DNA from: a virus
DNA length: 64,000 bases
IMG/VR virus record: IMGVR_UViG_3300028377_000007
Span: 23,041-87,040 of that record
Reading direction: 5' to 3' (one strand)
Positions 6,752 to 63,987 of this stretch are shown piece after piece. The notes below the pieces were generated by a model that did no database searches, was not told the origin of the DNA, and saw only the letters and a program-made list of their open reading frames with translations. A program made the translations under genes and the position numbers. Numbering within the stretch: position 1 is the stretch's first letter; each line of letters begins with the position of its first letter.

Positions 6752-7003
6752 TCAAGAATCTGGATCTGGATAACTGGGACAATCAATTGTAGGTATTTCA
6801 ACAGCCACGCAACCGCTAGACTCTTTGACGGGTTCGACATAGATTCCCGCTAACTTTTCAATATCACTTCTATAATAGCGTCTATGTCCGTCTTCTGTAT
6901 GGAATGGGGTTAATTTACCCACACGTTCCCAATTTCTAAGAGTTTTATCGGAGACTCCAAGGATGGATACGGCATCGCTGATTGATAGAATTTTCTTATC
7001 CAT
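6752..7003 (-). pseudogene. tnpA: truncated IS607 TnpA (MerR-type HTH only)
   Basis: near-identical to the TnpA N-terminus at 16940-17133 up to VEPVKESSG, then diverges. Confidence 0.8.
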
Positions 7004-7925
7004 TTTTGAATTCTTGGGGTAAAAAAGAAAATATATGGGCTATTACATCTACTGTCCAACCGTTACCTAGAGCGGCTTTAGCTTTGTTAATTTGAATCGG
7101 TGATGTATAATTATCTGGAATGGTTTGTAATCTTTCGTGCTCGATTCTGGTAGTCTTCCTAACCCCATTTTTTGTTAAAATTTTTGCTCCATGTGGAGCG
7201 GAATGCGAAAGGCATCCCATTTTACCATCGAGAAAATACGCCCTATAGTTTTGAGAATTATATCCCTTGTTTGTGCCGTCATATTGCCACGATATACCTC
7301 TCTTTTCGCCGTTTTGGTAAATATCTTGGTGGACAAACTCAAAATCCCCGCTCGTCTCAATAATATCCTTAATAGTAATTTTTTTGTCTATTAGAGGCAA
7401 AATATTACCTTCGATATTTGTCCAATAGAGACGTTTTCTTTTTTGAGCAGAAACTAAAGAAGAGTCTATTTCTATAGGAGTTGTATTTAAGTTGTCTGAG
7501 ATTATTTTTTGAAATTCTTTTTTCATCTTTACGTTCTCAAGCAAGAATTTAATATCTGGATTTTTTACTTTTAATTCATTGAGTAATCTAACAAATTCAA
7601 AAAATAATTTACTTCTAGGGTCCAGAAAATTTAATTGTTTGCCAGCAAAACTAAACCCCTGACAAGGCGACCCTGCAATTATTAAATCTATTTTAGGTAA
7701 ATTCTTAACATTAACATCAACAACCGAGCCTAATTGAATCGCATCTGGCCAGTTATGCTGAGTTACTTTAATTGCATGTTTGCCAATTTCGCTTGCAAAA
7801 TATTGATTGACTTTAATTCCTGCCCGATGTAGCGCAATTTGCCCACAGGAAATACCGTCAAACAAACTCAATACATTAATTCCTTTGTTATAATTTGGTT
7901 CAATTGGTTTGCTCATAATATTCAA
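6996..7925 (-). CDS. C5 cytosine DNA methyltransferase
   Basis: LSLFDGISCG, GSPCQGFS, LLENV, QKRKRLYW, LGNGW. Confidence 0.92.
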   Translation of the reverse strand: MNIMSKPIEPNYNKGINVLSLFDGISCGQIALHRAGIKVNQYFASEIGKHAIKVTQHNWPDAIQLGSVVDVNVKNLPKIDLIIAGSPCQGFSFAGKQLNFLDPRSKLFFEFVRLLNELKVKNPDIKFLLENVKMKKEFQKIISDNLNTTPIEIDSSLVSAQKRKRLYWTNIEGNILPLIDKKITIKDIIETSGDFEFVHQDIYQNGEKRGISWQYDGTNKGYNSQNYRAYFLDGKMGCLSHSAPHGAKILTKNGVRKTTRIEHERLQTIPDNYTSPIQINKAKAALGNGWTVDVIAHIFSFLPQEFKNG

Positions 7926-9921: not shown

Positions 9922-11007
9922 TTATTTTTTCAAAACTTGATATAGTAATTTTTTGTAATTTTCTTTTGTCAGCTCTTTTCCCTGCCTCAAACTAAAAACA
10001 AAGCCAGACCGATTTGTATCTCCCCATTTTTGAAATGTTTTTGCGGCAAAGGTTTTTTGATCTATTTCCTTATGATCCTGCACGAATTTTTTCATAAAGT
10101 CAACAATTTTTTTGACTTCTTTCCAACCGTCACAGATTCTAGAAATGCTTCCCTTCGTTTGTTCAGCAATTTCATAGTCTAAAGTATCAACAATTATTTG
10201 ATAAGCTTTATTATATTCTGGCATATCATGAGAAATCCAAAAATCAATAACCCTTTCAAAAGAACCGAGTTCTGATTTCATTCTATGTAAAGATAAATAG
10301 TGCTCGGCTTTTAGTTTTCTAATATCCTGGCCTTTATTACAATAAATACAAACTCCTTCCTTCCCTTCCCAAGAAGGTACGTCAGATAAAACATCTTTTA
10401 TGCTATTATAACTGTATGTTTTTGGGCGCTTAACTAGAATGTTATTTGCTTCTTCATCAATAATAAATTGTGATGCCATAGTATAATTCTCATGTTCTAT
10501 TATGCCAATTAAATAAAGTTCTGGCTCTTCTCCGTAGTCAAGTACAATCTTATTATTTGGAGTCACCCACTCATAAAGATAGGAGAGTTCAGAATTGATT
10601 TCAAAAGCTTTTGGATGCTTTTCTTTTAGATAATTTATTTCAAAACCGTTATCTAATTTTGTAGCATCAATTGTTCCTCTAGTTCTAACAATCAATTCAT
10701 TTTTATACTGCGAGACTATCAACGTAGAACCATCTATCTTTTCAATAATTTGGACCCCGCCGTTTGCAGTAGTAGAAAACGGAGTATAAGTTAATTCTGG
10801 TTGCTCTGAAAAGTTAAAGAATTTTTTAAATCCAGCGGAAATCAATTCACCATCAACATTCCAAATAGAAGATCTAAAAATTAGATTGTCTTTGGTCCAC
10901 TTTACACCTATATGTTTTGGGAAAATCAAAAAGCATTTATCGCCGCCAATTATTCCTTCTTTAAGAATAAAATCTGATAAATCATAGTCTGCTAAGTTTA
11001 TTTTCAT
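9922..11007 (-). CDS. RNA ligase, T4 Rnl1-like
   Basis: KKFFNFSE, EKIDGS, TRG, YEW, EGV. Confidence 0.85.
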   Translation of the reverse strand: MKINLADYDLSDFILKEGIIGGDKCFLIFPKHIGVKWTKDNLIFRSSIWNVDGELISAGFKKFFNFSEQPELTYTPFSTTANGGVQIIEKIDGSTLIVSQYKNELIVRTRGTIDATKLDNGFEINYLKEKHPKAFEINSELSYLYEWVTPNNKIVLDYGEEPELYLIGIIEHENYTMASQFIIDEEANNILVKRPKTYSYNSIKDVLSDVPSWEGKEGVCIYCNKGQDIRKLKAEHYLSLHRMKSELGSFERVIDFWISHDMPEYNKAYQIIVDTLDYEIAEQTKGSISRICDGWKEVKKIVDFMKKFVQDHKEIDQKTFAAKTFQKWGDTNRSGFVFSLRQGKELTKENYKKLLYQVLKK

Positions 11008-11023
11008 TTTGTGGTATTTTGAG

Positions 11024-11105
11024 TTATTTTAATCTTTCAACGCAAATATCATAATATTCTTTCTCTTTTTCAATCCCTATAAATTGTCTATTGAGATTAT
11101 TTCTT
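11024..11105 (-). pseudogene. C-terminal stub of an N4/N6 DNA methyltransferase
   Basis: translates as NLNRQFIGIEKEKEYYDICVERLK* with no start. Confidence 0.6.
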
Positions 11106-11108
11106 TTT

Positions 11109-11420
11109 TCATTTCTGTAATATTTCTAAATGGTATATACTATTAAATGTTTCAAAGATATATTCTTTATCTGATATTTTTTCTACATTTATAACGCATG
11201 AAGTACGAAAAATTCCGTCAACTTTTATGCCGTTTCTTTCTATTCTCTTGAGACAACAATGCTCATCTTTTTTGGGAATGCCAAGCGCATAACAAATAAC
11301 TTCGTAGCCAGACCAAATAGATTTTTCTGGATCGCTAAAGTCTTTATTTACATCCTTATCTGTTGAAGTCTCTACTGCGGGATTTTTTGACGCTGATTTT
11401 TTCTTAATTTTTACTATCAT
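11109..11420 (-). CDS. hypothetical protein
   Basis: ORF track. Confidence 0.6.
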   Translation of the reverse strand: MIVKIKKKSASKNPAVETSTDKDVNKDFSDPEKSIWSGYEVICYALGIPKKDEHCCLKRIERNGIKVDGIFRTSCVINVEKISDKEYIFETFNSIYHLEILQK

Positions 11421-11421
11421 T

Positions 11422-11673
11422 TTATTTACCCTCTTCTAACATACCCTTTTCAAAAAGCCACTCATCAAAATAAGTTGGTTTATCTCCCCCGTTAAAACAA
11501 TAATCAAAAAGCCATTCTTCTGTATTTTCTGTCAAGCCCTGAGATTTTAATTTTTCGACCATTTCATCATACTCTCGTTGTATGATTCTATTTAGGTTTA
11601 TCAAAAGCTCTTGCTTTGCCCAAATTTCGTCTAGCCACTCTGTTTTTAGCTCTGATTCTTTTACTTTGCTCAT
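11422..11673 (-). CDS. hypothetical protein
   Basis: ORF track. Confidence 0.6.
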   Translation of the reverse strand: MSKVKESELKTEWLDEIWAKQELLINLNRIIQREYDEMVEKLKSQGLTENTEEWLFDYCFNGGDKPTYFDEWLFEKGMLEEGK

Positions 11674-11870
11674 ATTTTATTTTTAAGATTTTCCTTAGTT
11701 TCTCCCGTCGTCCAAGTATTTAATTCTCCGCAACAATCGCAGATATATTTTCCTTCGATATGTCTAATTTCCCTATAAATCGTAGTTCGATAAGCTTTTA
11801 TTCTTTTTTTGCTCATTTTATTTAAAACTTTATCTTCTATATATTTCATTTTTTTATTCCCCTTCTATTT

Positions 11871-12866
11871 TTAAAAGTTTCTATCAATAATATTTAAGAA
11901 ATTCTCTCTAATCAATGTTGACGAGGATTGATTAAGGCTTTTGAATAAAAGTTTTTGCTCTGACTTTTCAAGTTCATTATATTTCTGCGAGTTTTCGCGC
12001 ATATAATCTTCTAAAACATCTGAGTTTAATTCCTTCATAATCTTGCCGAAATCTTTATCAGTGACATCTCCAATTTTAGACAATGCACTTCTTAATCTAT
12101 TTTCATTAACAAAGCTTTCGAGTTCTTCAATTTCTTTGGATAGTTCGGGCGAATATTCGATTTTTTGTTTTTTCTTTTTTGTTTTTTCTTTCTCTGAGAA
12201 TTTGGGGTTCTTATTTTTAAGTATAACCCTAGAACCGCACCCAAAAAACTTTGGAATAAAAGATTTGATAACGATCCCCTCTGACATATTTCCTTCTACT
12301 TTTTCCAATCCAAAATCTTTGTAAATCGGGTCTTCAAAAATAGGACTAAATTCTAAACATTCGTCAAAAGTTCCAGTAAATAAAATTGGCGAATAAGGTA
12401 TATCCGAATTCTTAAAAACATCAATTTTATAATCAAAGTCTAAATAAAAAGTATCTACTTTAATATCAACAGCATAAAACTCTATTTCTGGGGAATATTT
12501 TACCCTGTTTTGAATTGCTTTGACATTTGATTTAATATTTGGGTATGAACCGCCAAATAATTCTCCGTAAATAGATAGACATTCAAATGTGACATATTTG
12601 CTTTTTAAATATGCCCAAGCTTTTTTTATGTAAGACTCTAATTTTTCTTCAATAGAGCGAAAATTATAAAAGTCTTCATTTCCGCCGATAAAACCAGACC
12701 TTTTAGCATATCTTATTTCTTTCCCATCATAATGAACGGAAAAGTTTGCTCCATCAATTTTATTTGATACTTCCCATAGACCATCTTCAAGGCCATCGAA
12801 CCTAATTTGTTCGATTGTTTTTTCTCTATAGGTGTTTTCGATTGAGTTATATTTTGTGAACTTCAT
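11871..12866 (-). CDS. RNA ligase 2 (Rnl2 family); start probably MKFTKY
   Basis: KYNSIEN, KIDGANFS, YGELFGG, EGIVIK, KNKNPKFSE. Confidence 0.9.
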   Translation of the reverse strand: MKFTKYNSIENTYREKTIEQIRFDGLEDGLWEVSNKIDGANFSVHYDGKEIRYAKRSGFIGGNEDFYNFRSIEEKLESYIKKAWAYLKSKYVTFECLSIYGELFGGSYPNIKSNVKAIQNRVKYSPEIEFYAVDIKVDTFYLDFDYKIDVFKNSDIPYSPILFTGTFDECLEFSPIFEDPIYKDFGLEKVEGNMSEGIVIKSFIPKFFGCGSRVILKNKNPKFSEKEKTKKKKQKIEYSPELSKEIEELESFVNENRLRSALSKIGDVTDKDFGKIMKELNSDVLEDYMRENSQKYNELEKSEQKLLFKSLNQSSSTLIRENFLNIIDRNF

Positions 12867-13140
12867 GATTATTTTCTCTGTTTCTTGCAAACAACTTTGC
12901 TTGATATTTGAATCTGATTTTTTGTAAAGCTTCTAAATTATTGATAAGTAATGCTATATTTAATCCATCATCAAATATTTTATCTATTTGATTAAAAATA
13001 TCTTCCATATATTCGATTTGGGTTGCAATTTTAATTTCTGAAGATTTTGTAATTTTATCTGAAAATTCACATATGGTATGCGGATAATCCCCATCAGAAG
13101 TAGAAATCGGCGCAACTATTTTATTTTTGTGGTATTTCAT
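12847..13140 (-). CDS. hypothetical protein
   Basis: ORF track. Confidence 0.55.
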   Translation of the reverse strand: MKYHKNKIVAPISTSDGDYPHTICEFSDKITKSSEIKIATQIEYMEDIFNQIDKIFDDGLNIALLINNLEALQKIRFKYQAKLFARNRENNHEVHKI

Positions 13141-13489
13141 TTTGTATATTTTTTCCTAGTTGCAAAGCTGTTCTTGCATTTTCCAATGCTTTTTCTAAAT
13201 AATTAACCTGTCTTAATTTTCTAATTAAAAATGAATTTAAAGCCTCTTCTTTGGTGGGGTAAGCATATCTCTTTCGAGAGACTTTCGAAACCCATTTTTC
13301 TGTACACTTAAATATATAAAAATCTCCTTTATAAATTTCTTTTATCCAATAGCCCTTTGGGGTTTCTTTTGTTACATCAAACTCAATTAGTTTTACCTCT
13401 ATATTATCATAACTACATCTTACAAAATTATCAAATGGGTCTATTCCTCCTGTTGAGTGTATATCTTCTTGATATCTATAGTGTTTCAT
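13121..13489 (-). CDS. hypothetical phage protein (uninterrupted copy; carries the empty G|AT site)
   Basis: ETPKGYW...RYAYPTKEEALNSF. Confidence 0.7.
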   Translation of the reverse strand: MKHYRYQEDIHSTGGIDPFDNFVRCSYDNIEVKLIEFDVTKETPKGYWIKEIYKGDFYIFKCTEKWVSKVSRKRYAYPTKEEALNSFLIRKLRQVNYLEKALENARTALQLGKNIQNEIPQK

Positions 13490-13526
13490 TAAATTTTTAA
13501 AAAGTAAGTATAATCAGATTCATTTA
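13446..13526. repeat. direct duplication: matches 13718-13743 plus 14023-14078
   Basis: cctcctgttg(a/g)gtgtatatcttcttg and atatctatagtgtttcattaaatttttaaaaagtaagtataatcagattcattta each occur twice. Confidence 0.9.
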
Positions 13527-13743
13527 GGGATTCTATTTGTTAAGAATTATTGTGGCGTCTTTTTTTTTAAAGTCAATACTTTTTTGAAAAATTTATTTTT
13601 TAAGTTTCTCGTGGGGCTTGGATATCGTCTTTTTCGCTTACATCGAACTCGTGGTTTTATTCGCTTATTCTGCCGTGAGAATATTCGCTTATTGCGCAGA
13701 AAAATAAAATAGATTCTCCTCCTGTTGGGTGTATATCTTCTTG

Positions 13744-13968
13744 TTATAATTCACTGGAGAAGAAAAAATGGTCAGTATCGGCGGCAGCGTATTGCCCTAG
13801 TTTTTGGCTCACCCCATCCTTAGCTAAATGATAGCACAACCATCCCTTGTATTCATCGAGGTACCTGTTCGTGTAGGAAATGGAATGAGGGCGCTTGCCG
13901 TATTTTTCGATATACTTGTCCCAAGCCTTGCGGTCCTTACCTCTAGTCGGTCTCGATTCGTAATACAT
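13744..13968 (-). CDS. cassette-borne hypothetical protein (MYYESRP..., 74 aa)
   Basis: internal ATG next to the attC; the ORF-track version is a fusion with the interrupted host gene start MKHYRY. Confidence 0.65.
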   Translation of the reverse strand: MYYESRPTRGKDRKAWDKYIEKYGKRPHSISYTNRYLDEYKGWLCYHLAKDGVSQKLGQYAAADTDHFFFSSEL

Positions 13969-14022
13969 AATTATAACCAGCCAGATCAGGACAACTCGCT
14001 TCGCTAGCGCCTGTCTTCGAAA
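13744..14022 (+). mobile_element. integron-type gene cassette with attC-like site 13971-14022, carrying a minus-strand ORF
   Basis: starts G|TTATAATT, complementary to AATTATAAC at 13969-13977; L'' AGATCAG / L' CTGTCT; higher GC than flanks; absent from the duplicated empty copy. Confidence 0.8.
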
Positions 14023-14039
14023 ATATCTATAGTGTTTCA

Positions 14040-14828
14040 TTAAATTTTTAAAAAGTAAGTATAATCAGATTCATTTAAGGACTCAAACATCAAGCTTTTA
14101 CTCTTTACCACCATATAGGATTTTTGTAAATTGTCGAGGCAAAAATTCGTTTTTTCTTTTTCCCTCAACTCCGAAGTCCTTTTTGTTGTATGCCCGACTA
14201 TTTGGCGAATATTATCAACTGGAACAAATTCTTCCCAATCAACCCAAATCGGCGAAGAATAATGATCCGAGCCGCCCCTGTATGAACTCACATTCCAAAT
14301 CCAATGGAAAGGTTTGTGATGAAAAGAAAGCTTATCTTTCTCCCACTCATCGTAAAGATATTGTATATTATCTTCCTCGCTTAAATATGGCTTAAATTGA
14401 GCATATTGAAACCCAGCATGTACACAATAATATTCCCCGACTTTACAACACAACTTTAATTTTTTAAAAAACTTTGGGTCTATGTATTTGTTGAAATCAG
14501 TAGCTTTACTTCTTGTCCAACCAGAACAACAATAGAAAGTATTTTTTGACGGAATTATTTTTGGCGTATAAGATGCTAAATATGCTAAATCATGGTTTCC
14601 AAGTAAAAAATTAAACCTTTCATCGTCTAGTTTATCGTTTATCCACTTACAAACATTTTTAATAGAGAAATGCGTAGCATTGTTTATGTTATCGAATGTA
14701 TCAAAGAAATCCCCTAAAAATACAACATTATCAAAGTCCTTTTCTTTTTCAAGAATTGCGTCAGCGAAACCTAAATTTTGATGGATATCGGGGATTATGA
14801 TTGTTTTACCTTTGTTTATTTTTTTCAT
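14040..14828 (-). CDS. calcineurin-like metallophosphoesterase
   Basis: DIH, GDFFD, GNHD, HAG, GHT. Confidence 0.88.
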   Translation of the reverse strand: MKKINKGKTIIIPDIHQNLGFADAILEKEKDFDNVVFLGDFFDTFDNINNATHFSIKNVCKWINDKLDDERFNFLLGNHDLAYLASYTPKIIPSKNTFYCCSGWTRSKATDFNKYIDPKFFKKLKLCCKVGEYYCVHAGFQYAQFKPYLSEEDNIQYLYDEWEKDKLSFHHKPFHWIWNVSSYRGGSDHYSSPIWVDWEEFVPVDNIRQIVGHTTKRTSELREKEKTNFCLDNLQKSYMVVKSKSLMFESLNESDYTYFLKI

Positions 14829-14908
14829 CTTCTTTTGTTGCTTTTTCTTCCGCTATATCCATTTACTGGTACAGGTTTCCGTTCTTTTAAACTTACAAAA
14901 ATCTAAAG

Positions 14909-16126
14909 TCATATTTTTAAGATATAAACTCTTGATTTTTTGTTAAATTCCTGCTTCACAGAACAGCTAACCAAACTTTCGTTTGATGAACTCTGTTCTC
15001 CACAGGCCGACACGGTAGAGCTTACCGCCAAATTCTTTAAATTGATAGAGGCATTAAAATCCCTATCCATTTTATTGTCACACACCTTACACTCAAATAC
15101 TCTATCCGTCAAGGTCAGACTTTCGTTTTTCCATCCGCAGCATGAACACAATTTAGAGCTAGCGAAGAAAGTATCGGCAAAGATAACTTTTCTATTGCTC
15201 CATTTTGCTTTATATTCGACCTGACGACGAAATTCGAATAGTCCAACATCACTGATAGCTTGCGCCAAACAATGATTCTTCATCATATTGCTTACTTTCA
15301 AATCTTCTAAAACTATTGTTTTATTTTCACGAACAATTTTAGTGGTTATTTTATGCAAGCAATCTTTACGAATATTTGATATGTGATTGTGTAGTTTTGC
15401 TAATTTTTGTTTTGCTTTTCCATAGTTTTTACTTCCTTTTTTCTTTCTTGATAATTGACGTTGTTTGAGCTTTAATTTATTGAGATTCTTCTTTAATGCT
15501 TTGGGATTTTCGTAAGTCGTCCCGTCTGAGCAAGTAGCCAGAGTCTTAATGCCTAAATCAACTCCAATTACATCATTAATGGCGTTTGTAGGCTCTCTAT
15601 CGGGCGTTTCTACTTGAACCGACACAAACCATCTGCCAGCTTTCTTGGACACTGTAGCAGATAAGATTTTACAATCGGTTGGAATATAATCTTTTTCGGC
15701 TAATTTCAGCTTACCGATTCGCGGCAATTTAATACATCCAGATTCAACCGAAATTGCTCCATCCAATCTAAAAGATTGTTTGTCATTCTTTTTGGATTTG
15801 AATTTCGGGAACCCTTTCTTGCCTTTAACTTTTTTCTTGCAACGAGTGAAGAAATTTTGAAATGCTTTATCACAATCTCTTAATGCGTTTTGTGGCGAAC
15901 TTTTGCTTGAATTATACATCCAAGGAATATCGGTTTTCTTTAGTTTGTTTAATTCTCTATGAAGTTCAATAGCATTAGGGGTTTTCTCTTTCTTATCAAA
16001 TGCCTCTTTCTTGATATTTAAAGCCCAATTATAAGCAAAACGCGCCGCGCCCAAAGATTTCATCAGGTCGGTTTTTTGTGCATTGTTGGTCACTACAATC
16101 TCGGTTTTATATGCTCGTAAAATCAT
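14909..16126 (-). CDS. tnpB: TnpB RNA-guided endonuclease
   Basis: RAYKTE, RFAYNWAL, GVDLG, VLEDL, CSCC..CKVC, DRDFNAS. Confidence 0.95.
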   Translation of the reverse strand: MILRAYKTEIVVTNNAQKTDLMKSLGAARFAYNWALNIKKEAFDKKEKTPNAIELHRELNKLKKTDIPWMYNSSKSSPQNALRDCDKAFQNFFTRCKKKVKGKKGFPKFKSKKNDKQSFRLDGAISVESGCIKLPRIGKLKLAEKDYIPTDCKILSATVSKKAGRWFVSVQVETPDREPTNAINDVIGVDLGIKTLATCSDGTTYENPKALKKNLNKLKLKQRQLSRKKKGSKNYGKAKQKLAKLHNHISNIRKDCLHKITTKIVRENKTIVLEDLKVSNMMKNHCLAQAISDVGLFEFRRQVEYKAKWSNRKVIFADTFFASSKLCSCCGWKNESLTLTDRVFECKVCDNKMDRDFNASINLKNLAVSSTVSACGEQSSSNESLVSCSVKQEFNKKSRVYILKI

Positions 16127-16632
16127 ATCTTAAAAACCCTACCGAAATTAGAAAATATATGCTCAAATTCTGAAAATTTATTTCCCTTATAACATAAACA
16201 ACAAGCCATTGGAGCACCTTTTTTATCCTCTATTCCGTTGTTAAAAAAACGAAGTCTAGTGTCTGATAAAAAACAAATAGCGGTATATTTTTTAAAAACT
16301 ATTTCCTTAAAGTGTTTGGTGTTAGTAGCGACAGGAACTAAGAAAATTAATTCACCCTCTGTCTCAAGGGATTTTTTAAACCAGTCATATAGAGACTTCC
16401 CTTTACTTCTGCCGTAAGGAGGATTTACAAAGATGGTTTTAGCGTCCCATTTTTCAATTAATCCGTCCTTATTTGGGTATATTAGATTATTTCTCGCAGA
16501 AACCAGAGAATTCTGATTGGAACATGGGTCTAATTCGATTTCTCCACCAAAAAATGCTGTTATTGGAATTATGTATTTCGGAGGGGTATTCCAATCCTTT
16601 TTATCAGAATTATTTTTGCGACCAGCACTCAT
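16123..16632 (-). CDS. phage Dam-type N6-adenine DNA methyltransferase
   Basis: WNTP, LDPCS, FVNPPYG. Confidence 0.85.
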   Translation of the reverse strand: MSAGRKNNSDKKDWNTPPKYIIPITAFFGGEIELDPCSNQNSLVSARNNLIYPNKDGLIEKWDAKTIFVNPPYGRSKGKSLYDWFKKSLETEGELIFLVPVATNTKHFKEIVFKKYTAICFLSDTRLRFFNNGIEDKKGAPMACCLCYKGNKFSEFEHIFSNFGRVFKI

Positions 16633-17133
16633 ACCAATTCCTCCATTTCTTTCTTAATTCATTTTCAAAGCCCTTAGACATCACTTCTTCAACTTTTTCA
16701 ATCCTAACTTTATATGAATTAAAATATGAAACCAAATAATTAAAGCAAAATCTCGACAATCTATCTTTATGCTCAATCAAAACCACATCAATTTCTTTCG
16801 CTTCCACCAATTCAAATAATTACAGCAATAATACTGTAACCGCGTTTAAGAGCTTCTGTAGTCATTCTACCAACCTGCCTCCCTAAGTCGCCTTTAGTCT
16901 TTTGTTCGTGCGGGCTAACGCGACAATAGATAGCTGCACGCTTACCGCTAGATTCTTTAATGGGTTCAACATAAATTCCCGCCAACTTCTCAATATCGCT
17001 GCGATAATAGCGTCTATGTCTGCCTTCGGTATGAAACGGCGTTAATTTGCCTGCACGTTCCCAATTCCTTAATGTTTCGTCGGAAACACCAAGAATAGAT
17101 GCGGCATCGCTGATAGATAGAATCTTTTTATCC
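16610..17133 (-). pseudogene. tnpA: IS607 TnpA serine recombinase, broken by an internal deletion/frameshift and C-terminal truncation
   Basis: MerR HTH, AIYCRVS (frame 1); IEHKDRLSRF (frame 2). Confidence 0.85.
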
Positions 17134-17303
17134 ATTTTATCTATCAATCCTTTCTGTTGAAATAATCTAAACCATCCATCGTAGATTTTCTGAAATTCCT
17201 CAATTGTAGGAACCTCATCCAATTCAAACGGAATATCATGGATAACTCCATCATCGGTTTCAAATTCTGTTTTGGTAACTCTTGTAATCATTTTTGGTTT
17301 CAT
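17134..17303 (-). CDS. small passenger ORF read in-frame into tnpA
   Basis: 56 aa precede MDKKILS in the same frame. Confidence 0.55.
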
Positions 17304-17372
17304 ATATATTTACACTAAAAGTTTAGATTTTTCAAGAAAAAAGTTAAATTATTTTAATTTTATTTAGATATT

Positions 17373-17609
17373 TTAGATTATCGGGTAGCAGTTGTCAACC
17401 CCGTCATTTGCTAATTTTAATATTCTTCTTAGAATTTTTAACTCTGTTTTTGTAAAATTTATTTTATGCCATAGATCTATAATATCGTCGACTAAATATA
17501 AATTCTCACATTCTATATTTTTTAAAAAATTAAAAAGCTTTTCTGAATTGTTATATTTGCAACCCATATGGGAATCAGATATAAAAATATGCTTTGATTT
17601 TATCATCAC
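17373..17609 (-). pseudogene. truncated LpxH-like metallophosphoesterase
   Basis: FISDSHMG, LYLVDDIIDLW; ends at the IS607 left end. Confidence 0.65.
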
Positions 17610-33809: not shown

Positions 33810-33955
33810 GGTTTTTATTATGAATTTTTTTTCGGTTTAGTCAAGGGTTTTTTGCGGGGTTTCTTATTTTTTTTGAAAATATTGTCGTAGTTGTCTCTGA
33901 ATTTAGAAAAATTAGTTACTCTGTTTTTATCGCCTTTGCCGTTCATATCTGGTTG

Positions 33956-34098
33956 CCGTTCTTTTAAACCTACAAAAATCTAAAGCCATCTTTTTAAGAT
34001 ATAAACTCTCGATTTTTTGTTAAATTCCTGCTTCGCGTTTCATCAGAAACTCCTAGAATAGATGCGGCATCACTAATTGATAGAATTTTTTTATTCAT
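33956..34098 (-). mobile_element. internally deleted IS607 remnant (tnpA start joined to the tnpB right end)
   Basis: 33956-34034 matches 14879-14957; 34038-34098 encodes MNKKILSISDAASILGVSDET. Confidence 0.85.
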
Positions 34099-37981: not shown

Positions 37982-38272
37982 CTAATACGCTATCGATTTT
38001 TTAACCTTTGTCAATGCTTTTCCCAAAAGATTTTGCCCATCCCAATTTTTGGAATCACAGTGAATTTCAGAAATATAATCCAATCCAATCCCTATCCCCC
38101 AAATTTTATCAATCGGCGATGCCTCTACAAATTCATCCCCCGAATTTATGAGAATTTTTCTTAGATGAGGATTCTGCGTGAACTTCAATAAATTCCCATA
38201 AAAAACAATCTTTTCTTTATGATTATCCCATGTTGATTGTTTGTAATCAAAAATTTGCCGCCCTATTCTCCA
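37982..38272 (-). pseudogene. N-terminally truncated NADAR (YbiA-like) protein
   Basis: GRQI...W...KFTQN, EASPIDKIWGIG, GQNLLGKAL; in-frame stop upstream. Confidence 0.8.
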
Positions 38273-39766: not shown

Positions 39767-39937
39767 TTTATATGCTATAATAACTATATTAAATATATAA
39801 TTAGGCGGAGCGATTAATAGTGTAGAATAATTATATATTTAATATAGTTATTATAACAAAATACATCGTAAAACTTTAATAAGCCGAGCTAGACGATAAC
39901 ATCTAAGGCAATAAAGTCTCCTTTTATTCCATATAAA
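39767..39937 (-). ncRNA. retron msr-msd RNA
   Basis: 8-bp a1/a2 repeats (39767-39774 / 39930-39937), G at 39929, two short stem-loops (39910-39928, 39883-39909), perfect 28-bp hairpin 39776-39855. Confidence 0.8.
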
Positions 39938-43284: not shown

Positions 43285-43357
43285 TGGAGTCCCGTAACGG
43301 AATCTAACCGTGTATCAAGGGTTGCAACCTTGCGCATAAACATTCTGCCAACGAGAC
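43285..43357 (-). tRNA. tRNA-Cys(GCA)
   Basis: cloverleaf, U73, CCA. Confidence 0.85.
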
Positions 43358-43364
43358 TTAAAAA

Positions 43365-44175
43365 CTAGCTTGAGATTAAAGCTTTATAAGTAAGATCTTT
43401 AAAAAGATTATTGTTTCCTTTCTTATCCACGGATTTTAGCCCGTATCCTTACACGACTGCCTTTTTAAACTTGTGGCGTTTCAAGCATATCTAAGACTAT
43501 TCTACCGTTTTTATTCTCCGTTAAAGCCGCTAAACCCTAACGAATTTTACTCCACGATAAAACTAAGATTCCTTGTGAGAATACTTAGCACCAAATTCCC
43601 TTTCGAGTGTGGCATTAAGCCGCTTTCATCTTAGATTGGACGAGATTTTTACATAATAATTGGGATTGAACCAATATACTATTCCTTTAGATGGAATTGC
43701 TATACCATTTAGCTATATTATTTTTTCCCTACTGAATGGTACTCGTCCAATCGCTTTCTTCCCTTTTGGAGAAAACTATACGATACCGCCCATTATCCTC
43801 TTCTTGCCGAAGTTTAGACCATACTTCACGAAAATTTCTTTCCATTTGTATTACCAAGAACCATTTACCTGCAAAGTTTACAGAACTTGATTACCGTTAA
43901 TTGATGCTATCTACTTATTTTGCATCCCTTAGAAATTTGCGGTTTCGCGACTCTCACCGTTGGCCTGAGTCTTAGGATAAATAAATAACTACTTCTATTT
44001 CCATAAAAGTTTAGCTTTTCAGCTTCACAATCTTGGCTTGCGTAAATAACCTTTGGTTTATGACTTCCAAGGCGATAAAGTGTAGGCTTTATCTTTCCGA
44101 TACTCTCATACCGCCATTTTCCTCCACAACTTTGTTTGTTGCTTCAATGGTGGATCTCACGCGACCCGTTTAAAA
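43365..44175 (-). ncRNA. large structured ncRNA, GOLLD-like
   Basis: ~800 nt without a credible ORF, many helices, in a tRNA cluster, own promoter; 3' part AAAAGGCAG...GGAUAAGAAAGGAAACAAUAA...GCUUUAAUCUCAAGC resembles my recollection of GOLLD 3' motifs. Confidence 0.7.
43652..43722 (-). ncRNA. tRNA-like element with CUA anticodon inside the large RNA
   Basis: D arm GCU/AGC, AUUCC-AUCUAAA-GGAAU, AUUGG-UUCAAUC-CCAAU, 6-bp AU acceptor stem, no CCA. Confidence 0.7.
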
Positions 44176-44275
44176 CTGTTAAAGAACAAAATCCTCTTTT
44201 GAAGATTATGATAATGACTATGACGTTTTTTTTTGCAAAGTCAATGCTTTTTTTGAAAAATTTGTTTTTTTAAAA

Positions 44276-44350
44276 TGGGGCGACTAACGGGGATTGAACC
44301 CGTACTCCAATCGTCACAGGATTGTACTCTACCTTTGAGTTATAGCCGCC
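44276..44350 (-). tRNA. tRNA-His(GUG)
   Basis: cloverleaf, encoded G-1, C73. Confidence 0.92.
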
Positions 44351-44355
44351 ATAAA

Positions 44356-44431
44356 TGGTAGTCCCAACAGAACTTGAATCTGTATCTTCCGATTATCGGT
44401 CGGATGCTCTAACCATTTGAGCTATAGGACT
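44356..44431 (-). tRNA. tRNA-Ile(GAU)
   Basis: cloverleaf, CCA. Confidence 0.9.
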
Positions 44432-44568
44432 ATATTAAAACCATTGCTATAATCGGCCAAATGTCAATAAAAAAACCCTTTTTGGCCACTTATAAAAAAA
44501 TAACGGGAAAGATATCTCGTCTTTCTCAAAGTTTGTCCTTTTAACAAACACTTGTGTCCGCTATATAA

Positions 44569-44645
44569 TGGTAGGCGATGTAGGATTCAAACCTACGGCT
44601 TCTTCCGTGTAAAGGAAACACTCTAATCAACTGAGTTAATCGCCC
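44569..44645 (-). tRNA. tRNA-Val(UAC)
   Basis: cloverleaf, CCA. Confidence 0.92.
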
Positions 44646-44657
44646 ATAAATATTGAT

Positions 44658-44749
44658 TGGCGGATAGTGCGGGATTCGAACTCGCGGGGGCTTTTAAACC
44701 CCATTTCTTTAGCAAAGAAACGCCTTAAACCTAACTCAGCCAACTATCC
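44658..44749 (-). tRNA. tRNA-Ser(GCU)
   Basis: long variable arm, CCA. Confidence 0.92.
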
Positions 44750-44757
44750 ATTTATAT

Positions 44758-44831
44758 TGGTGCAACTAGAGAGAATCGAACTCTCATACTAGACTTGGCA
44801 AGCCCATATCATGCCTTTAGATCATAGTTGC
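44758..44831 (-). tRNA. tRNA-Gly(GCC)
   Basis: cloverleaf, CCA. Confidence 0.88.
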
Positions 44832-44837
44832 AAATTT

Positions 44838-44922
44838 TGGTGCGGATAAAGAGATTTGAACTCTTACGCCTTTCGACAATAGCTTTTGAAACTATCATGG
44901 CTACCAATTACATCATATCCGC
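44838..44922 (-). tRNA. tRNA-Leu(CAA)
   Basis: long variable arm, CCA. Confidence 0.9.
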
Positions 44923-44926
44923 AAAA

Positions 44927-45004
44927 TGGAGCAAGATAGGGATTAGGAACCCCTAACGCTCACTTGGAAGGCGAGAACTTTTAACCTATTTAAGCTAATC
45001 TTGC
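44927..45004 (-). tRNA. tRNA-Gly(UCC), atypical T loop
   Basis: cloverleaf, CCA. Confidence 0.78.
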
Positions 45005-45011
45005 ATAAAAA

Positions 45012-45103
45012 TGGCGGAGAGTGTAGGATTCGAACCCACGGAGGCTTTTACACCCCTTTTGTTTTCAAGACAAACGCAATAACCCAGACTCTGCCAACTC
45101 TCC
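45012..45103 (-). tRNA. tRNA-Ser(UGA)
   Basis: long variable arm, CCA. Confidence 0.93.
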
Positions 45104-45251
45104 AGATATACCCATATAAACCGCCGTTTACTAAACCCAAGGGTTGTGAGCTTGGATTACTTCTTTCAATAGTGCAATTACCCATACCCGAACGCATATC
45201 CTTGATTCGGAACCGAAATTTTTATTAAATTAATTATTTATATTTTTTTTC

Positions 45252-45338
45252 TGGTCGATGCGGCGAGAATCCAACTCGCACTCTTTTTACGGAACCAGAG
45301 CCTAAATCTGGCGGGTCTAGCAATTCCCCCACGCACCG
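45252..45338 (-). tRNA. tRNA-Leu(UAG)
   Basis: long variable arm, CCA. Confidence 0.88.
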
Positions 45339-45435
45339 CTTTCTATTTTAAATCAAAGCCTTTTTCTTCGTTTAATTTAATCCACAAAAAATAGTCTGTT
45401 TCGCTAATAGCAAGCTTTAAAGTTTGTTTTTTTGT

Positions 45436-45511
45436 TGGTGCTTGCTATGGGATTCGAACCCATAAACCTCGCATTTTAAGTGCGATCCATAAACCGTTCT
45501 GGTAAGCAAGC
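45436..45511 (-). tRNA. tRNA-Leu(UAA) with short variable loop
   Basis: cloverleaf, CCA. Confidence 0.88.
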
Positions 45512-45518
45512 TTATATA

Positions 45519-45595
45519 TGGTGTATTAGCCGAGAATCGAACTCGGAACATTTTGCTTGGAAGGCAAACACTCTACCTAATTGAGTTACTAATAC
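45519..45595 (-). tRNA. tRNA-Gly(UCC), second copy
   Basis: cloverleaf, CCA. Confidence 0.9.
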
Positions 45596-45623
45596 ATTGT
45601 TTTGTATTTATTATTACAAATTA

Positions 45624-45698
45624 TGGCGTTACAACGGAAATTCGAATTCCGATCCTATAGGTGAAAGCCATAGTGTCCTACCATTAGACGATTGTAAC
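45624..45698 (-). tRNA. tRNA-Glu(UUC)
   Basis: cloverleaf, CCA. Confidence 0.88.
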
Positions 45699-45752
45699 AT
45701 ATTTATTAATTTTTAAAACTTGCTATACTTTTTATAACTTGTCAAGTTTTTT

Positions 45753-45828
45753 TGGCGGGATAGATTGGATTTGAACCAATAACGCCGAATTCTTCAGACT
45801 CGCGCTCTACCGTTGGAGCTACTATCCC
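45753..45828 (-). tRNA. tRNA-Phe(GAA)
   Basis: cloverleaf, CCA. Confidence 0.92.
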
Positions 45829-45838
45829 ATTTTTTAAA

Positions 45839-45913
45839 TGGCTCTGGAGCAGGGAATCGAACCCCGTTCAATTGGTTAACAGCCAATCCGCTCAACCGTG
45901 TGCGTTCACCAGA
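45839..45913 (-). tRNA. tRNA-Asn(GUU)
   Basis: cloverleaf, CCA. Confidence 0.88.
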
Positions 45914-45920
45914 ACAAAAA

Positions 45921-45996
45921 TGGCGGGTATGAGGGGACTGGAACCCCAATTGGAAAAGTAGACAGCCTTCCGCATTACCATATATGCTGCATGCCC
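45921..45996 (-). tRNA. tRNA-Asp(GUC)
   Basis: cloverleaf, CCA. Confidence 0.82.
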
Positions 45997-46180
45997 AAAA
46001 TTTTAAAATAATTAAACAAGAACAATAAACCTTTTTTCTATATACATTTCAATAAGAGAGTTTTGGTTTATTGTTTTAAATTTTTTTTTAAAAATTAATA
46101 ACACAAAGAAGAGTCATGTTATCTAGGATTACAAATCCCGTGCTTAGACCTTTAATATTTTTAAATACTTCTTGTGTTAA

Positions 46181-46256
46181 TGGTGGGGGTAGACGGATTC
46201 GAACCGACTGCCAATTGGTTAAAAGCCAACTGCTCGACCACATGAGCTTTACCCCC
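46181..46256 (-). tRNA. tRNA-Lys(UUU)
   Basis: cloverleaf, CCA. Confidence 0.93.
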
Positions 46257-46367
46257 TTTTATAATTAATCTGGCTGGAGAACCGAGATGAAAACTCCGTA
46301 ACATTTGTTTCGCCGCCCTTAAAACGGTCCCAGTTCTGCTTCTGGTTTGATTGTCGGTTTTTTTCGG

Positions 46368-46444
46368 TGGAGCCGCATGGGTAGATTTGAACTCCCGACC
46401 TTCTCTTTACAAGAGAGATGCTCTACCATCTGAGCTAATGCGGC
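46368..46444 (-). tRNA. tRNA-Thr(UGU)
   Basis: cloverleaf, CCA. Confidence 0.92.
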
Positions 46445-46452
46445 ATAATATT

Positions 46453-46528
46453 TGGTACTCCTATCGAGACTCTAACTCGAAACGCATTGTTCGTAGCAAT
46501 ACATGATATACAATTTCAACATAGGAGC
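46453..46528 (-). tRNA. tRNA-Arg(ACG)
   Basis: cloverleaf, CCA. Confidence 0.85.
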
Positions 46529-46529
46529 T

Positions 46530-46606
46530 TGGTACGAACGGTGGGACTCGAACCCACATATATACAGCTTAGAAGGCTGTTGCCTCTCCAATTAGACTAC
46601 GCTCGC
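46530..46606 (-). tRNA. tRNA-Arg(UCU)
   Basis: cloverleaf, CCA. Confidence 0.92.
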
Positions 46607-46725
46607 ATAAAATAAAAAGCTCTCATAACTCTTGTACGCGCAATACCAAAAGGATATTAACGGAGCAAACATATCCGAGATTATAATTTGTTAAAAGTTT
46701 GTTGATTTCATACTCGATGAGCTTT

Positions 46726-46801
46726 TGGCTGGTTAGACACGACTTGAACGCGCAACAAGAGGGTTTGGAAGCCTCTGCTCTACCAATTGAGCTACTAACC
46801 A
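46726..46801 (-). tRNA. tRNA-Trp(CCA)
   Basis: cloverleaf, CCA. Confidence 0.88.
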
Positions 46802-46810
46802 ATATAATAA

Positions 46811-46884
46811 TGGCAGATCTACCCCGATTTGAACGAGGACAAAATGGACCAAAACCATTTGTGCTACCATTACACTATAGATCT
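46811..46884 (-). tRNA. tRNA-Gln(UUG)
   Basis: cloverleaf, CCA. Confidence 0.9.
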
Positions 46885-46891
46885 GTGAAAA

Positions 46892-46971
46892 TGGGTGCAG
46901 GAGCGGGATTCGAACACCGCGTCCTTCTGGTTATGAGCCAGATATCCTAGACCAGACTAGACCATCCTGCA
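46892..46971 (-). tRNA. tRNA-Met(CAU), possibly initiator-type
   Basis: cloverleaf, CU-CAU-AA loop. Confidence 0.82.
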
Positions 46972-47046
46972 TGGTAGTAACGGTATGATTCGAACATACA
47001 ACCTACTGTTAATGAGACAGTCGCACTTCCATTGTGCTACGCTACT
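46972..47046 (-). tRNA. tRNA(CAU), elongator Met or Ile2
   Basis: cloverleaf, CCA. Confidence 0.85.
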
Positions 47047-47049
47047 ATA

Positions 47050-47125
47050 TGGTGGAGCCAGACGGATTTGAACCGACGACATCTTGCTTGCAAAGCAAGC
47101 GCTCTTCCTACTGAGCTATGGCCCC
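47050..47125 (-). tRNA. tRNA-Ala(UGC)
   Basis: G3-U70, CCA. Confidence 0.95.
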
Positions 47126-47228
47126 ATATTATCTAAAATACACCCACATCAAAAATATTTTACTATTTCTCGGACTTCGAACCCGATATAGTGTCCCGCT
47201 GAATTTATTTATACACATATTTTAGATA

Positions 47229-47305
47229 TGGTCGCCGTAGTAGGATTTGAACCTACGATCTTTTGCTCCCAAAGCAAACGCGATACCAAGCTACGCCATA
47301 CGACG
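47229..47305 (-). tRNA. tRNA-Pro(UGG)
   Basis: cloverleaf, CCA. Confidence 0.92.
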
Positions 47306-47386
47306 ATAATAATTAACCCAAGTATAAATGCGAATATAACAGAAACGCCAATCTATAAGTCTTTCTGATCACACTGATTAATTAAA

Positions 47387-47772
47387 TGGTGGAGATAAAG
47401 GGAGTCGAACCCTTGTCTTATATCTTTTTAATATATTTATTTCTTACAAGCTTAGTTTATTTTTAATTTTAAAATTCATATTTAAATAAACAAATAAATA
47501 TAAACTCGATTTTCTATTATGATTATAGACGAAAAAACTCTATAAAAATTTTACTATTCTGATTAAGCACCGCAACAATTAATAGTGATCCTTGTTTTTT
47601 GATGAGGTTTTACCCAAAGCTTACTAAGCTGCGATTGCTACTGGAGCAACTTCATCTTGGAAGCTTACGATTTTGTTGTTATCGCCAACTATGCGTGTTT
47701 TGAACTTTAAAGATGTATCTTTCTGCTTGTAAAATATACCTAGAAAATACAATCGAATCCAAGTATATCCCC
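47387..47772 (-). ncRNA. ssrA: tmRNA; tag (A)GDNNKIVSFQDEVAPVAIAA**
   Basis: 5' GGGGAUAUACUUGGAUUCGA, 3' GGGUUCGACUCCC...UCUCCACCA, tag ORF 47627-47686. Confidence 0.93.
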
Positions 47773-47783
47773 AAATAATTTTA

Positions 47784-47870
47784 TGGTGTAGGCAGACGGA
47801 ATTGAACCGCCGAGGGTTTCCCCGACTGTTTTACAGACAGTTGCCACGAACCAACAGTGACCTTGCCCAC
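47784..47870 (-). tRNA. tRNA-Tyr(GUA)
   Basis: variable arm, CCA. Confidence 0.9.
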
Positions 47871-63034: not shown

Positions 63035-63094
63035 TTCTAACTCTTCGTTACTCACAATCCTCATTCTTCGGATGAGAGAGCAGAACTATTCGAC
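63035..63094 (+). other. attC-like site A
   Basis: TTCTAAC-5-GTTACTC...GAGAGC-6-ATTCGAC (G>A in R'). Confidence 0.7.
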
Positions 63095-63279
63095 AGGAGA
63101 TTATCAAAGTCTTCATTCGTCTTTAGAATCTCAGCAACCACAGGGCAAGGTTCGTCGCTGTTGTGGTATTCCGTTTTACGGTGGGACAGTTCGTGGCAGC
63201 CTGATACGTGCCGATTGAGGCAACGAGAAAGCCTGACAGCCATATCTTTCCACGCTTTAGCTTTTTGTTTATCTGTCAT
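63061..63279 (-). CDS. cassette 1 hypothetical protein (start probably MTDKQK)
   Basis: lies between attC A and B; stop codon inside the attC hairpin. Confidence 0.65.
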   Translation of the reverse strand: MTDKQKAKAWKDMAVRLSRCLNRHVSGCHELSHRKTEYHNSDEPCPVVAEILKTNEDFDNLLSNSSALSSEE

Positions 63280-63288
63280 AATAAAAAT

Positions 63289-63349
63289 GTCGAACAAGTC
63301 GCTGGACATCAACGCTCATTCTTCGCGTGAGTCAGCTTGAGCGTTAGAT
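63289..63349 (+). other. attC-like site B
   Basis: GTCGAAC-5-GCTGGAC...GTCAGC-6-GTTAGAT. Confidence 0.85.
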
Positions 63350-63738
63350 TTAAGAGAATCGAATCTCCAATTTCCAACTCGCCGCACTTTTTCGTAGCCG
63401 TATCGCTCACCAAAAAGAGGCTTACTTTTGGTTATCAAAACATTTCCAAAGCGGAAACTTTCCCTCCTCCATAGGCGGGGAGACCATGCGTAACCGTTTC
63501 CAGTGTCCCAAGTCCCCCCGAACACTTTCGCGTACAGCACAGGTCTACACCACTCGTTTTTACTTCTTGTCCTATGCGGGACGTGGCGAAGATAAAGACG
63601 ACGTAGAAACGAAGTTTTATCCCCACAACCCCTAGAGCATGGTATGTCCTCAAAGGTGTCAGCTTTGCACTTCGGGCAGATTCCAAATGACCTACTCATT
63701 TTTACCCCCCGTTTCATGATAGCAGCCCTCTTCTTCAA
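63316..63738 (-). CDS. cassette 2 hypothetical Zn-finger protein
   Basis: CPKC...CSRGC; GC-rich. Confidence 0.6.
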   Translation of the reverse strand: MKKRAAIMKRGVKMSRSFGICPKCKADTFEDIPCSRGCGDKTSFLRRLYLRHVPHRTRSKNEWCRPVLYAKVFGGTWDTGNGYAWSPRLWRRESFRFGNVLITKSKPLFGERYGYEKVRRVGNWRFDSLKSNAQADSREE

Positions 63739-63889
63739 GCTGTCTGATCACTTCGAGTTCTAGTGTTTCAACACTTTCAAGAGTGCAGAATCTATCACAT
63801 CCCCATTCGGATGATTTGCGAGTATCCCACCCCAATATTTTGTGTTTTTTAATGGCGGCGTGAACCGCCGAGTTTCCTGCTGATGTCAT
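63692..63889 (-). CDS. cassette 2 hypothetical protein
   Basis: ORF track; GC-rich. Confidence 0.55.
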   Translation of the reverse strand: MTSAGNSAVHAAIKKHKILGWDTRKSSEWGCDRFCTLESVETLELEVIRQLEEEGCYHETGGKNE

Positions 63890-63922
63890 ATTTTACCTTT
63901 CATCTTTCATTTTTTGTTAAAA

Positions 63923-63987
63923 ATCTAACCAGTCAGTGCTCACAATTCCGTTCGTGCCTCACTCCATGCGAGACTGTGGTGTTAAAA
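63923..63987 (+). other. attC-like site C
   Basis: ATCTAAC-5-AGTGCTC...GAGACT-5-GTTAAAA. Confidence 0.85.

Follow-up and report, generated by a model that had tools for sequence, protein, structure and literature searches.

Introduction

Off-array insertion of integron gene cassettes has already been demonstrated in laboratory work and inferred from bacterial genomes, and attC clusters are known from phages. Insertions outside arrays follow the consensus 5'-GWT-3', and single attC sites without an integron integrase (SALINs) arise by recombination between attC and a genome site (bioRxiv 10.1101/2022.09.11.507474). In virulent phages, attC clusters that are recognised by IntI1 have been described (PMC9892861). 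Here, we analysed a 64,000-nt stretch of viral DNA (positions 23,041 to 87,040 of IMG/VR virus record IMGVR_UViG_3300028377_000007), hereafter the window, which is the last 64 kb of an 87-kb record with a CheckV completeness of 59%. Positions 13744-14022 of the window are probably a solitary, SALIN-like gene cassette of the integron type, inserted by recombination between its attC and a secondary site. On the best reading of its sequence, this cassette would consist of a 58-nt attC and one 74-aa gene. The boundaries of the insert are exact, its attC geometry matches that of real attC sites, the target is a GWT site, filled and unfilled alleles occur in nature, and the cargo gene is intact.

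Results

An insert of 279 bp at a G|AT site

The locus is arranged as L1-R1-S-L2-I-R2, where L (27 bp) and R (62 bp) are the halves of a duplicated 89-bp unit, S is a spacer and I is the insert. Its features are as follows.

13121-13489, minus strand: intact 122-aa phage gene (MKHYRYQEDIHSTGG...), from the list of open reading frames (ORFs); PHROG 13631, E 4e-30
13445-13471 and 13472-13533: L1 and R1, copy 1 of the 89-bp unit (repeat families D1 and D2; sequence), with an uninterrupted G|AT at 13471|13472
13534-13716, promoter on the minus strand: spacer S, 183 bp, from promoter scan and alignments
13717-13743: L2, 27 bp copied from the start region of the 122-aa gene (codons 7-15), with the target G as its last base
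13744-13968, minus strand: 74-aa ORF (P0001), from translation
13971-14022, plus strand: putative attC body, from geometric scans with a Vibrio positive control and from the DNA fold of the circular junction
14023-14084: R2, the original 62-bp right half, continuous with the metallophosphatase gene and carrying the ATG of the interrupted gene start (14040-14038)
14040-14828, minus strand: metallophosphatase gene, 262 aa, from sequence and Pfam PF00149, E 2.7e-12

A repeat search showed that the 89-bp unit at 13445-13533 recurs, split, as 13717-13743 and 14023-14084, with identities of 26/27 for the left half (13445-13471 vs 13717-13743) and 60/62 for the right half (13472-13533 vs 14023-14084). 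In the intact copy, ...CTTCTTG|ATATCTATAG, the G before the bar is position 13471, and the other copy carries exactly 279 bp between G 13743 and the ATATC that begins at 14023. These boundaries were obtained by comparing copy 1 with copy 2 and from an allele found in sequencing run X6. The target, CTTG|ATATC, lies between codons 6 and 7 of the 122-aa gene and matches the 5'-GWT-3' consensus, and no target duplication is present beyond the shared G. The GC content is 44-48% in the insert (43-48% with part of the spacer included), compared with about 30% in the surroundings, which marks the insert as foreign in composition.

The same structure was found in other assemblies. An independent metagenome contig of the Joint Genome Institute (JGI; L014, 40.8 kb) aligns to window positions 10747-14880 at 99.6% identity and contains the same duplication and insert, with 11 substitutions in 12700-14880. 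Logan contigs from three further lake-water runs (X3-X5) also contain the insert and show seven differences from the window across this stretch, which is the count of L014; their unitigs span 13497-14051, and the shared 56-nt repeat in these runs has about twice the flanking depth. Three haplotypes of the insert protein are present in assemblies of the European Nucleotide Archive (ENA). In run X3, a 555-bp unitig has a depth of 6 compared with about 13, but unitig depths cannot resolve a mixture of alleles and nothing was drawn from this value.

A 16.4-kb contig of a salt-lake run (X6) has 14023 immediately after 13471 and is without I, L2, S and one R, which together make up 551 bp. This contig represents a true unfilled allele, and that allele could equally be the product of a secondary deletion between the 62-bp repeats. 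The insert, the spacer and the duplicate are absent from it together, so that the events may have come in either order.

An initial annotation, made from the letters of the window, had described a duplicated gene start with 279 bp inserted exactly at a G and without target-site duplication. The repeat search, L014 and the three lake-water runs agree with the first part of this description, and the comparison of copies agrees with the second; the finding of one structure in L014 and in the contigs of three runs also answers the concern, raised there, that the duplication might be an assembly artefact. The locus had further been taken as a before-and-after record of cassette capture. This idea gained from X6, in which an allele that is truly empty at this site occurs in another lake population, and it has to be corrected for the neighbouring copy, which is an 89-bp paralogous duplicate and not the empty allele of the population. 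The view that the disrupted copy had decayed did not survive, as the interrupted copy was never a whole gene and has only 27 bp of the 122-aa gene beyond the insert.

The attC geometry of the circularised insert

The elements of the putative attC site are distributed over both ends of the insert as follows (plus strand).

13971-13977: R'' TTATAAC
13978-13982: spacer CAGCC
13983-13990: L'' AGA[T]CAGG, with the bulged T at 13986
13991-14009: loop, 19 nt
14010-14016: L' CCTGTCT
14017-14021: spacer TCGAA
14022: first base of R'
13744-13749: remaining part of R' (TTATAA), at the opposite end of the cassette

The start of the insert, TTATAATT, is the reverse complement of AATTATAA(C) at 13969-13977, and within the insert AGATCAGG (13983-13990) stands opposite CCTGTCT (14010-14016). 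On the plus strand, the insert starts with TTATAA and ends with ...TCGAA followed by an A at 14022, where the sister contig L014 has a G. After circularisation, R' reads ATTATAA in the window and GTTATAA in L014, and the latter is a perfect complement of R'', so that the R boxes of the L014 circle pair at 7/7 positions (9/9 with flanks). The third haplotype (P0002) also implies a G at 14022, and in the window haplotype a derived Asp replaces the Gly or Ala found throughout the family. Since L014 has the G, P0002 implies it and the Asp of the window is derived, the G was probably the original base. We infer that the conserved G of R' was mutated to A in the window, which should immobilise the cassette.

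For the geometric scans, attC sites in the 20 kb beside the integron integrase (TIGR02249) of a Vibrio genome (locus L021) were used as a control. A strict template (7/5/3+1+3/loop/6/5/7), with R'' ending in AAC, one bulged base after the third nucleotide of L'' and R' starting with GTT, gave 26 hits on the array strand of the Vibrio 20 kb and 0 on the opposite strand. On the plus strand, and on that strand only, the circularised L014 insert fits this template, with its G|TT exactly at the insert junction, which had been defined independently by the comparison of copies and by the X6 allele. When the insert was shuffled, only 2/200,000 sequences fitted the strict template with G|TT on the junction. 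Over the whole 87-kb record, the strict template gave 4 hits, compared with 2.45 expected, and therefore the template alone is no proof elsewhere in the record. A relaxed geometric scan of the record gave as many hits as expected from shuffled sequence (21 vs 20.4; 8 vs 6.9); as it was without power, only the strict template validated on Vibrio was used. As an independent check of consistency, the boundaries show which strand was exchanged (minus strand, cut at AATTATAA|C), and the bulged base is on the arm that would be expected from this strand. The 54-nt site occurs once in the window when up to 3 mismatches are allowed.

These results bear out most of what the initial annotation had said of the insert, namely that its start is complementary to its own R'', that it ends in an attC-like hairpin resembling a further site of the record (site C, described below), that the expected final G is an A, and that it had been captured at a secondary G|WT site. 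The complementarity was confirmed at 13969-13977; the circularised L014 insert fits the Vibrio-derived template and has an 11-mer (TAACCAGTCAG) in common with site C; the G is present in L014; and the capture is in line with the template match, the G|TT on the junction and the GWT consensus. Folding of the reconstructed circular attC, which had been suggested as a check, gave z values of -2.0 to -2.7 at the junction, in addition to the pairing of the R boxes in L014. Only the circular junction is informative in folding.

The cargo gene

On the gene strand, the insert consists of a 54-nt leader followed by the 74-aa ORF, whose TAA forms the last three bases of the insert. Judged by its sequence relatives, this ORF belongs to a real small-protein family of about 75 aa with the consensus Y..RPK.G..RKAWDKF..P..Y..NYD..KGWVC...FY.S.EL. 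A search of 1.8 billion representatives gave 15 representative hits, about 10 of them full-length (73-84 aa, 35-50% identity), and a profile search gave 28 relatives, among them forms of 172-185 aa with a C-terminal extension; a homologue from Vibrio cholerae (P0034) is among the family. Members P0012 and P0017-P0025 are 171-236 aa long (most 171-185) and carry about 100 further residues as a C-terminal domain. AlphaFold confidently modelled the 74-aa protein as a small helix-plus-sheet fold with a predicted local distance difference test (pLDDT) score of 82.7, and its best structure match (Z 5.0) is to small helix-plus-sheet domains. Nothing convincing as to function was found in Pfam, PHROGs, a PDB sequence search, ESM Atlas, Foldseek PDB or VIA-align, and tblastn searches with the 74-aa ORF against phages and with the Vibrio homologue against plasmids gave no match.

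In the window, MKHYRY and the 74-aa ORF form one continuous reading frame (98 aa in total), and in L014 that frame has a stop at codon 20. The ORF itself is intact in all haplotypes. As the fusion frame is stopped in L014 while the 74-aa ORF remains intact, the 74-aa protein is therefore the conserved unit.

The duplicated unit and the promoter spacer

The final 14 codons of the metallophosphatase gene lie, together with its stop, in the right half of the unit, and therefore R2 is the original and R1 is a non-coding copy, in which 13490-13533 form a non-functional copy of these 14 codons. Thus 44 bp of the 89-bp unit derive from the 3' end of the metallophosphatase gene, and the remainder is the start of the 122-aa gene. 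The interrupted copy has only codons 1-6 and 7-15 of the 122-aa gene and is a short partial, paralogous duplicate.

The AT-rich half of the spacer (13534-13610) is a minus-strand promoter of the phage type (TTGACT 13576-13571, 16 nt, CACAAT 13554-13549) directed at the 122-aa gene. It aligns with promoters at 44205-44280 and 37985-38045 and is about 83% like 44213-44270. The GC-richer half (13602-13716) contains three TTCGCTTA repeats; it showed no significant structure in folding, and no relative of it was found in viral contigs. When viral contigs were scanned for exact patterns of the repeat and of two spacer motifs, no match was found; near-identical records possibly lie outside the scanned set.

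Neither a simple tandem duplication nor a transposon-like target duplication yields the L-R-S-L-I-R order, and a derivation from a 5-bp GATTC repeat at the spacer ends does not fit the sequence either. We regard the 89-bp duplication with its 183-bp promoter spacer as a separate event of illegitimate recombination, which may have preceded or followed the insertion. As a result, an intact 122-aa gene with a promoter of its own lies downstream of the cassette.

A second GC-rich island with attC-like sites

At the very end of the record, 63035-63987 form a GC-rich island (44-50%) with attC-like sites.

63289-63349: site B, passes a slightly relaxed template
63923-63987: site C, passes the strict template

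The bases right after site B (TTAGATTT) complement the R'' of site C, and the 11-mer shared by site C and the L014 insert has the same structural position in both. A minus-strand gene of the island (63319-63717) has four homologues of 37-71% identity, and three of them (65-71% identical) are alike until ...SLKSN, the point of the predicted cassette boundary AA|C, beyond which they diverge. The genes of the island are antisense to the attC polarity (at least one gene is reverse), and no integrase lies alongside. Taken together, the sites and the homologues suggest that this phage carries several cassettes drawn from a single pool. A neighbour of the island is, as judged by eye, a gene like those for GMP reductase and IMPDH.

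Neighbouring genes and other features of the record

According to the ORF list and Pfam, every gene in 11400-17300 lies on the minus strand. In addition to the genes given above, this region contains the following.

within 11400-17300, minus strand: Rnl2-type RNA ligase gene and two small ORFs, from the ORF list and Pfam
14909-16126, minus strand: TnpB gene
16123-16632, minus strand: Dam methylase gene
16610-17303: split gene for a serine recombinase with a MerR-type helix-turn-helix (HTH), IS607-like TnpA

The metallophosphatase stop codon and the ATG of the following gene overlap (TAATG). The PHROG 13631 match of the 122-aa gene gives no function; an identical protein is present on 9 contigs, and a search of viral contigs gave no relative. 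In X6, a 511-bp deletion (12871-13383) joins the 122-aa gene, after its first 35 residues, to the final 8 residues of the next gene, which gives a 43-aa product (P0042), and 12 nt at 13425 are also missing. This region of small genes is a hot spot of variation. The 122-aa gene, mostly deleted there, is dispensable in the X6 lineage. A nucleotide search with 12800-14900 against GenBank phages gave no match.

A block of about 2.5 kb at 14880-17400, with the split recombinase, the Dam methylase and TnpB, is replaced in L014 by 653 bp, which complete a 235-aa second metallophosphoesterase gene; the window version of this gene is cut to 78 aa (17373-17609). The contigs of X3-X5 end at 14874/14880. 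The block looks like a polymorphic element of the IS607/TnpB type (IS, insertion sequence) with a methylase. At 33951-34098 (see also 6812-7006 and 16944-17138), 84 bp that copy the TnpB 3' end, or right end, with 94% identity directly adjoin a third copy of the start of the HTH-recombinase gene (MNKKILSISDAASILG...), which suggests an internally deleted derivative of the same element, similar to a miniature inverted-repeat transposable element.

Elsewhere in the window, 43285-47870 on the minus strand contain 26 transfer RNA (tRNA) genes, a transfer-messenger RNA (tag GDNNKIVSFQDEVAPVAIAA) and a tRNA with anticodon CUA, of the amber suppressor type. At 39778-39853, an AT-only perfect palindrome (TAATAAC...GTTATTA) passes the geometric attC filter on both strands and is probably a terminator or other hairpin and not an attC.

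Discussion

We propose that the insert is an integron-type cassette captured at a secondary site. In this proposal, the cassette would have arrived as a circle, and an integron-type tyrosine recombinase, encoded by the host or by the part of the phage that was not sequenced, would have been the agent. The folded bottom strand of attC (window minus strand, cut at AATTATAA|C) would have been exchanged with the double-stranded secondary site G|AT, by the attC x attG route as described for bacteria. The product would be a 'backward' cassette with the gene on the exchanged strand and attC in front, and its expression would come only by read-through from the minus-strand operon of the phage.

Several observations weigh against this proposal. 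The 74-aa gene is antisense to the attC polarity and has attC upstream of its ATG, an orientation clearly found in 3 of the 25 cassettes of the Vibrio control, where 19 are co-oriented. Typical cassettes contain one ORF, in most cases without a promoter, and have attC downstream of it; reverse ones form a minority. Both R' and R'' are AT-only, depart from RRRY/RYYY and partly encode the conserved C-terminal Glu-Leu-stop of the protein. The fold of the circular junction is only modestly unusual, and the linear hairpin alone is not unusual (z -0.9). The initial annotation had pointed to the homologues as a test of the attC-like flank, and none was seen at the two loci examined: the homologue in phage contig L008, directly after the primase gene, and that on Vibrio europaeus plasmid L012 are ordinary packed genes without such a flank, and the family is present in 1/301 Vibrionaceae genomes only. 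Neither PF00589 nor any tyrosine recombinase was found in the 87-kb record, which is 59% complete. Integrase chemistry fails to yield the L-R-S-L-I-R order as a source of the duplication, and among the alleles examined none has the insert alone or the duplication alone.

Some of these observations would be expected if the insert were a 'moron', that is, a foreign fragment brought in by illegitimate or short-homology recombination between phages, with the palindrome as a regulatory or terminator structure, an explanation that we consider unlikely. In a patchwork form of it, the insert may have come with the spacer and the duplicates as one arrival of 551 bp, for example as a circle that entered in the Campbell manner at the 62-bp R homology, or by break repair with filler DNA. 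Such an arrival would suit an only empty allele that is without all 551 bp at once, with intermediates not seen, a promoter of the phage's own type in the spacer, homologues at L008 and L012 that are ordinary phage and plasmid genes without attC, and a record without an integrase; moreover, promoter/stem-loop cassettes of T4-type phages are known to shuffle ORFs and to form mini-circles (PMC2839356). However, a moron gives no reason to expect insert ends that fall exactly on the G|TT of a full attC template, as seen in 2/200,000 shuffles, nor the G of the sister haplotypes, the GWT target and the 11-mer common with site C. In addition, the 54-nt site is unique in the window, unlike the repeated motifs of the phage promoter/stem-loop (PeSL) cassettes, and the GC-rich half of the spacer is without a significant fold. 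A PeSL-type cassette in the strict sense was rejected, as the insert site occurs once in the window and only the spacer promoter is repeated. Likewise, a group I or group II intron was rejected. Group I introns have a G at the 3' end and group II introns have the ends GUGYG...AY, and the gene strand of the insert starts with TTTCG (CTTCG in L014) and ends with TATAA; a search of 12500-16500 against Rfam gave no match at E <= 1, hence neither an intron nor a known RNA.

A non-autonomous derivative of a single-strand or rolling-circle transposon (IS200/IS605-type or IS91-type), inserting without target duplication, would explain the lack of such a duplication and the hairpin close to one end, and we regard it as very unlikely. 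The insert is preceded by ...TTCTTG, and IS91-type elements use the target CTTG/GTTC; TnpB and the split serine recombinase at 14909-17303 form part of a TnpB element 900 bp away that is polymorphic between contigs. Against this, the insert has a single palindromic region whose outer arm pairs with the opposite terminus, which is the signature of an integron cassette and not of subterminal hairpins at both ends; repeat searches showed no likeness between the insert and the termini of the resident TnpB element, the 84-bp 3' end of which recurs at 33951-34034; and the whole insert is filled by its cargo, an unrelated, conserved small gene. A miniature element of the IS200/IS605 type was rejected, with one palindromic region only and no similarity to this 84-bp end. 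A chimeric join or a mis-resolved repeat in the assembly is hardly credible. The 27- and 62-bp repeats are of a size that breaks short-read graphs, and Logan unitigs do break at 13471-13526, but the independent JGI contig has the same structure at 99.6% identity with substitutions of its own, unitigs of three other runs span 13497-14051 with about double the depth over the repeat, and three insert protein haplotypes exist in ENA assemblies.

Taking the insert as a captured integron cassette, the locus is a natural case in an uncultured lake phage, in which the unit, the target and the crossover are known to the single base, related populations contain both filled and unfilled alleles, and in one haplotype immobilisation would have begun with the change of G to A in R'. 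Such a case favours the view that single genes are loaded straight into phage genomes by integron recombination. The locus also adds to the examples of the reverse gene/attC layout, which the literature cited here does not describe as a rule for phages. More tentatively, and with more doubt than belief, backward cassettes might be the rule of a phage-linked integron world, with the gene on the folding, exchanged strand and attC in front; an integrase, carried by the phage or by the host, would paste them straight into phage genes at GWT sites. Because the cargo family otherwise consists of ordinary phage and plasmid genes, the cassette could then stem from a phage gene. If this is true, a cassette derived from a phage gene bears on the unsolved question of cassette origin.

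Compared with known systems, the locus is closest to the SALINs made by attC x attG recombination (Loot et al., bioRxiv 10.1101/2022.09.11.507474). In both cases, a lone cassette lies outside an array without target duplication at a G|WT site (here G|AT), attC is kept at one end, the crossover G is common to target and cassette, and no integrase is nearby. Unlike the SALINs of bacterial chromosomes, the recipient here is a phage, the cargo is antisense to attC, the target lies in an 89-bp duplicated segment with a promoter spacer, and recombination is inferred. The cassettes of the Vibrio sedentary integron (L021) share the identical template and likewise start with TT... and end with ...G. 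They differ in the length of the site (58 nt here vs about 127 nt), in the AT-only R boxes found here, in the gene, which here is on the opposite strand (3/25 in the control), and in the setting, which here has no attI, Pc promoter or IntI. The PeSL cassettes of T4-type phages (Arbiol et al. 2010, PMC2839356) resemble the locus in their small ORFs in variable phage regions, their promoter and stem-loop motifs and their proposed circular intermediates, and spacer S has a repeated phage promoter motif. PeSLs use homologous recombination between repeated motifs, whereas the palindrome here is unique and the boundaries lie at an internal G|TT. Clusters of attC sites with no integron integrase (CALINs) in temperate and virulent phages (Qi, Rajabal, Ghaly, Tetu, Gillings 2023, PMC9892861) have attC sites and cassettes without an integrase in common with this record, which also has the site cluster 63035-63987. 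In that study, clusters of at least 2 attC sites were found by IntegronFinder and tested with IntI1, whereas here a single cassette is known from sequence; in contrast to those clusters, filled and unfilled alleles are available here, and therefore the insertion point is defined to the base.

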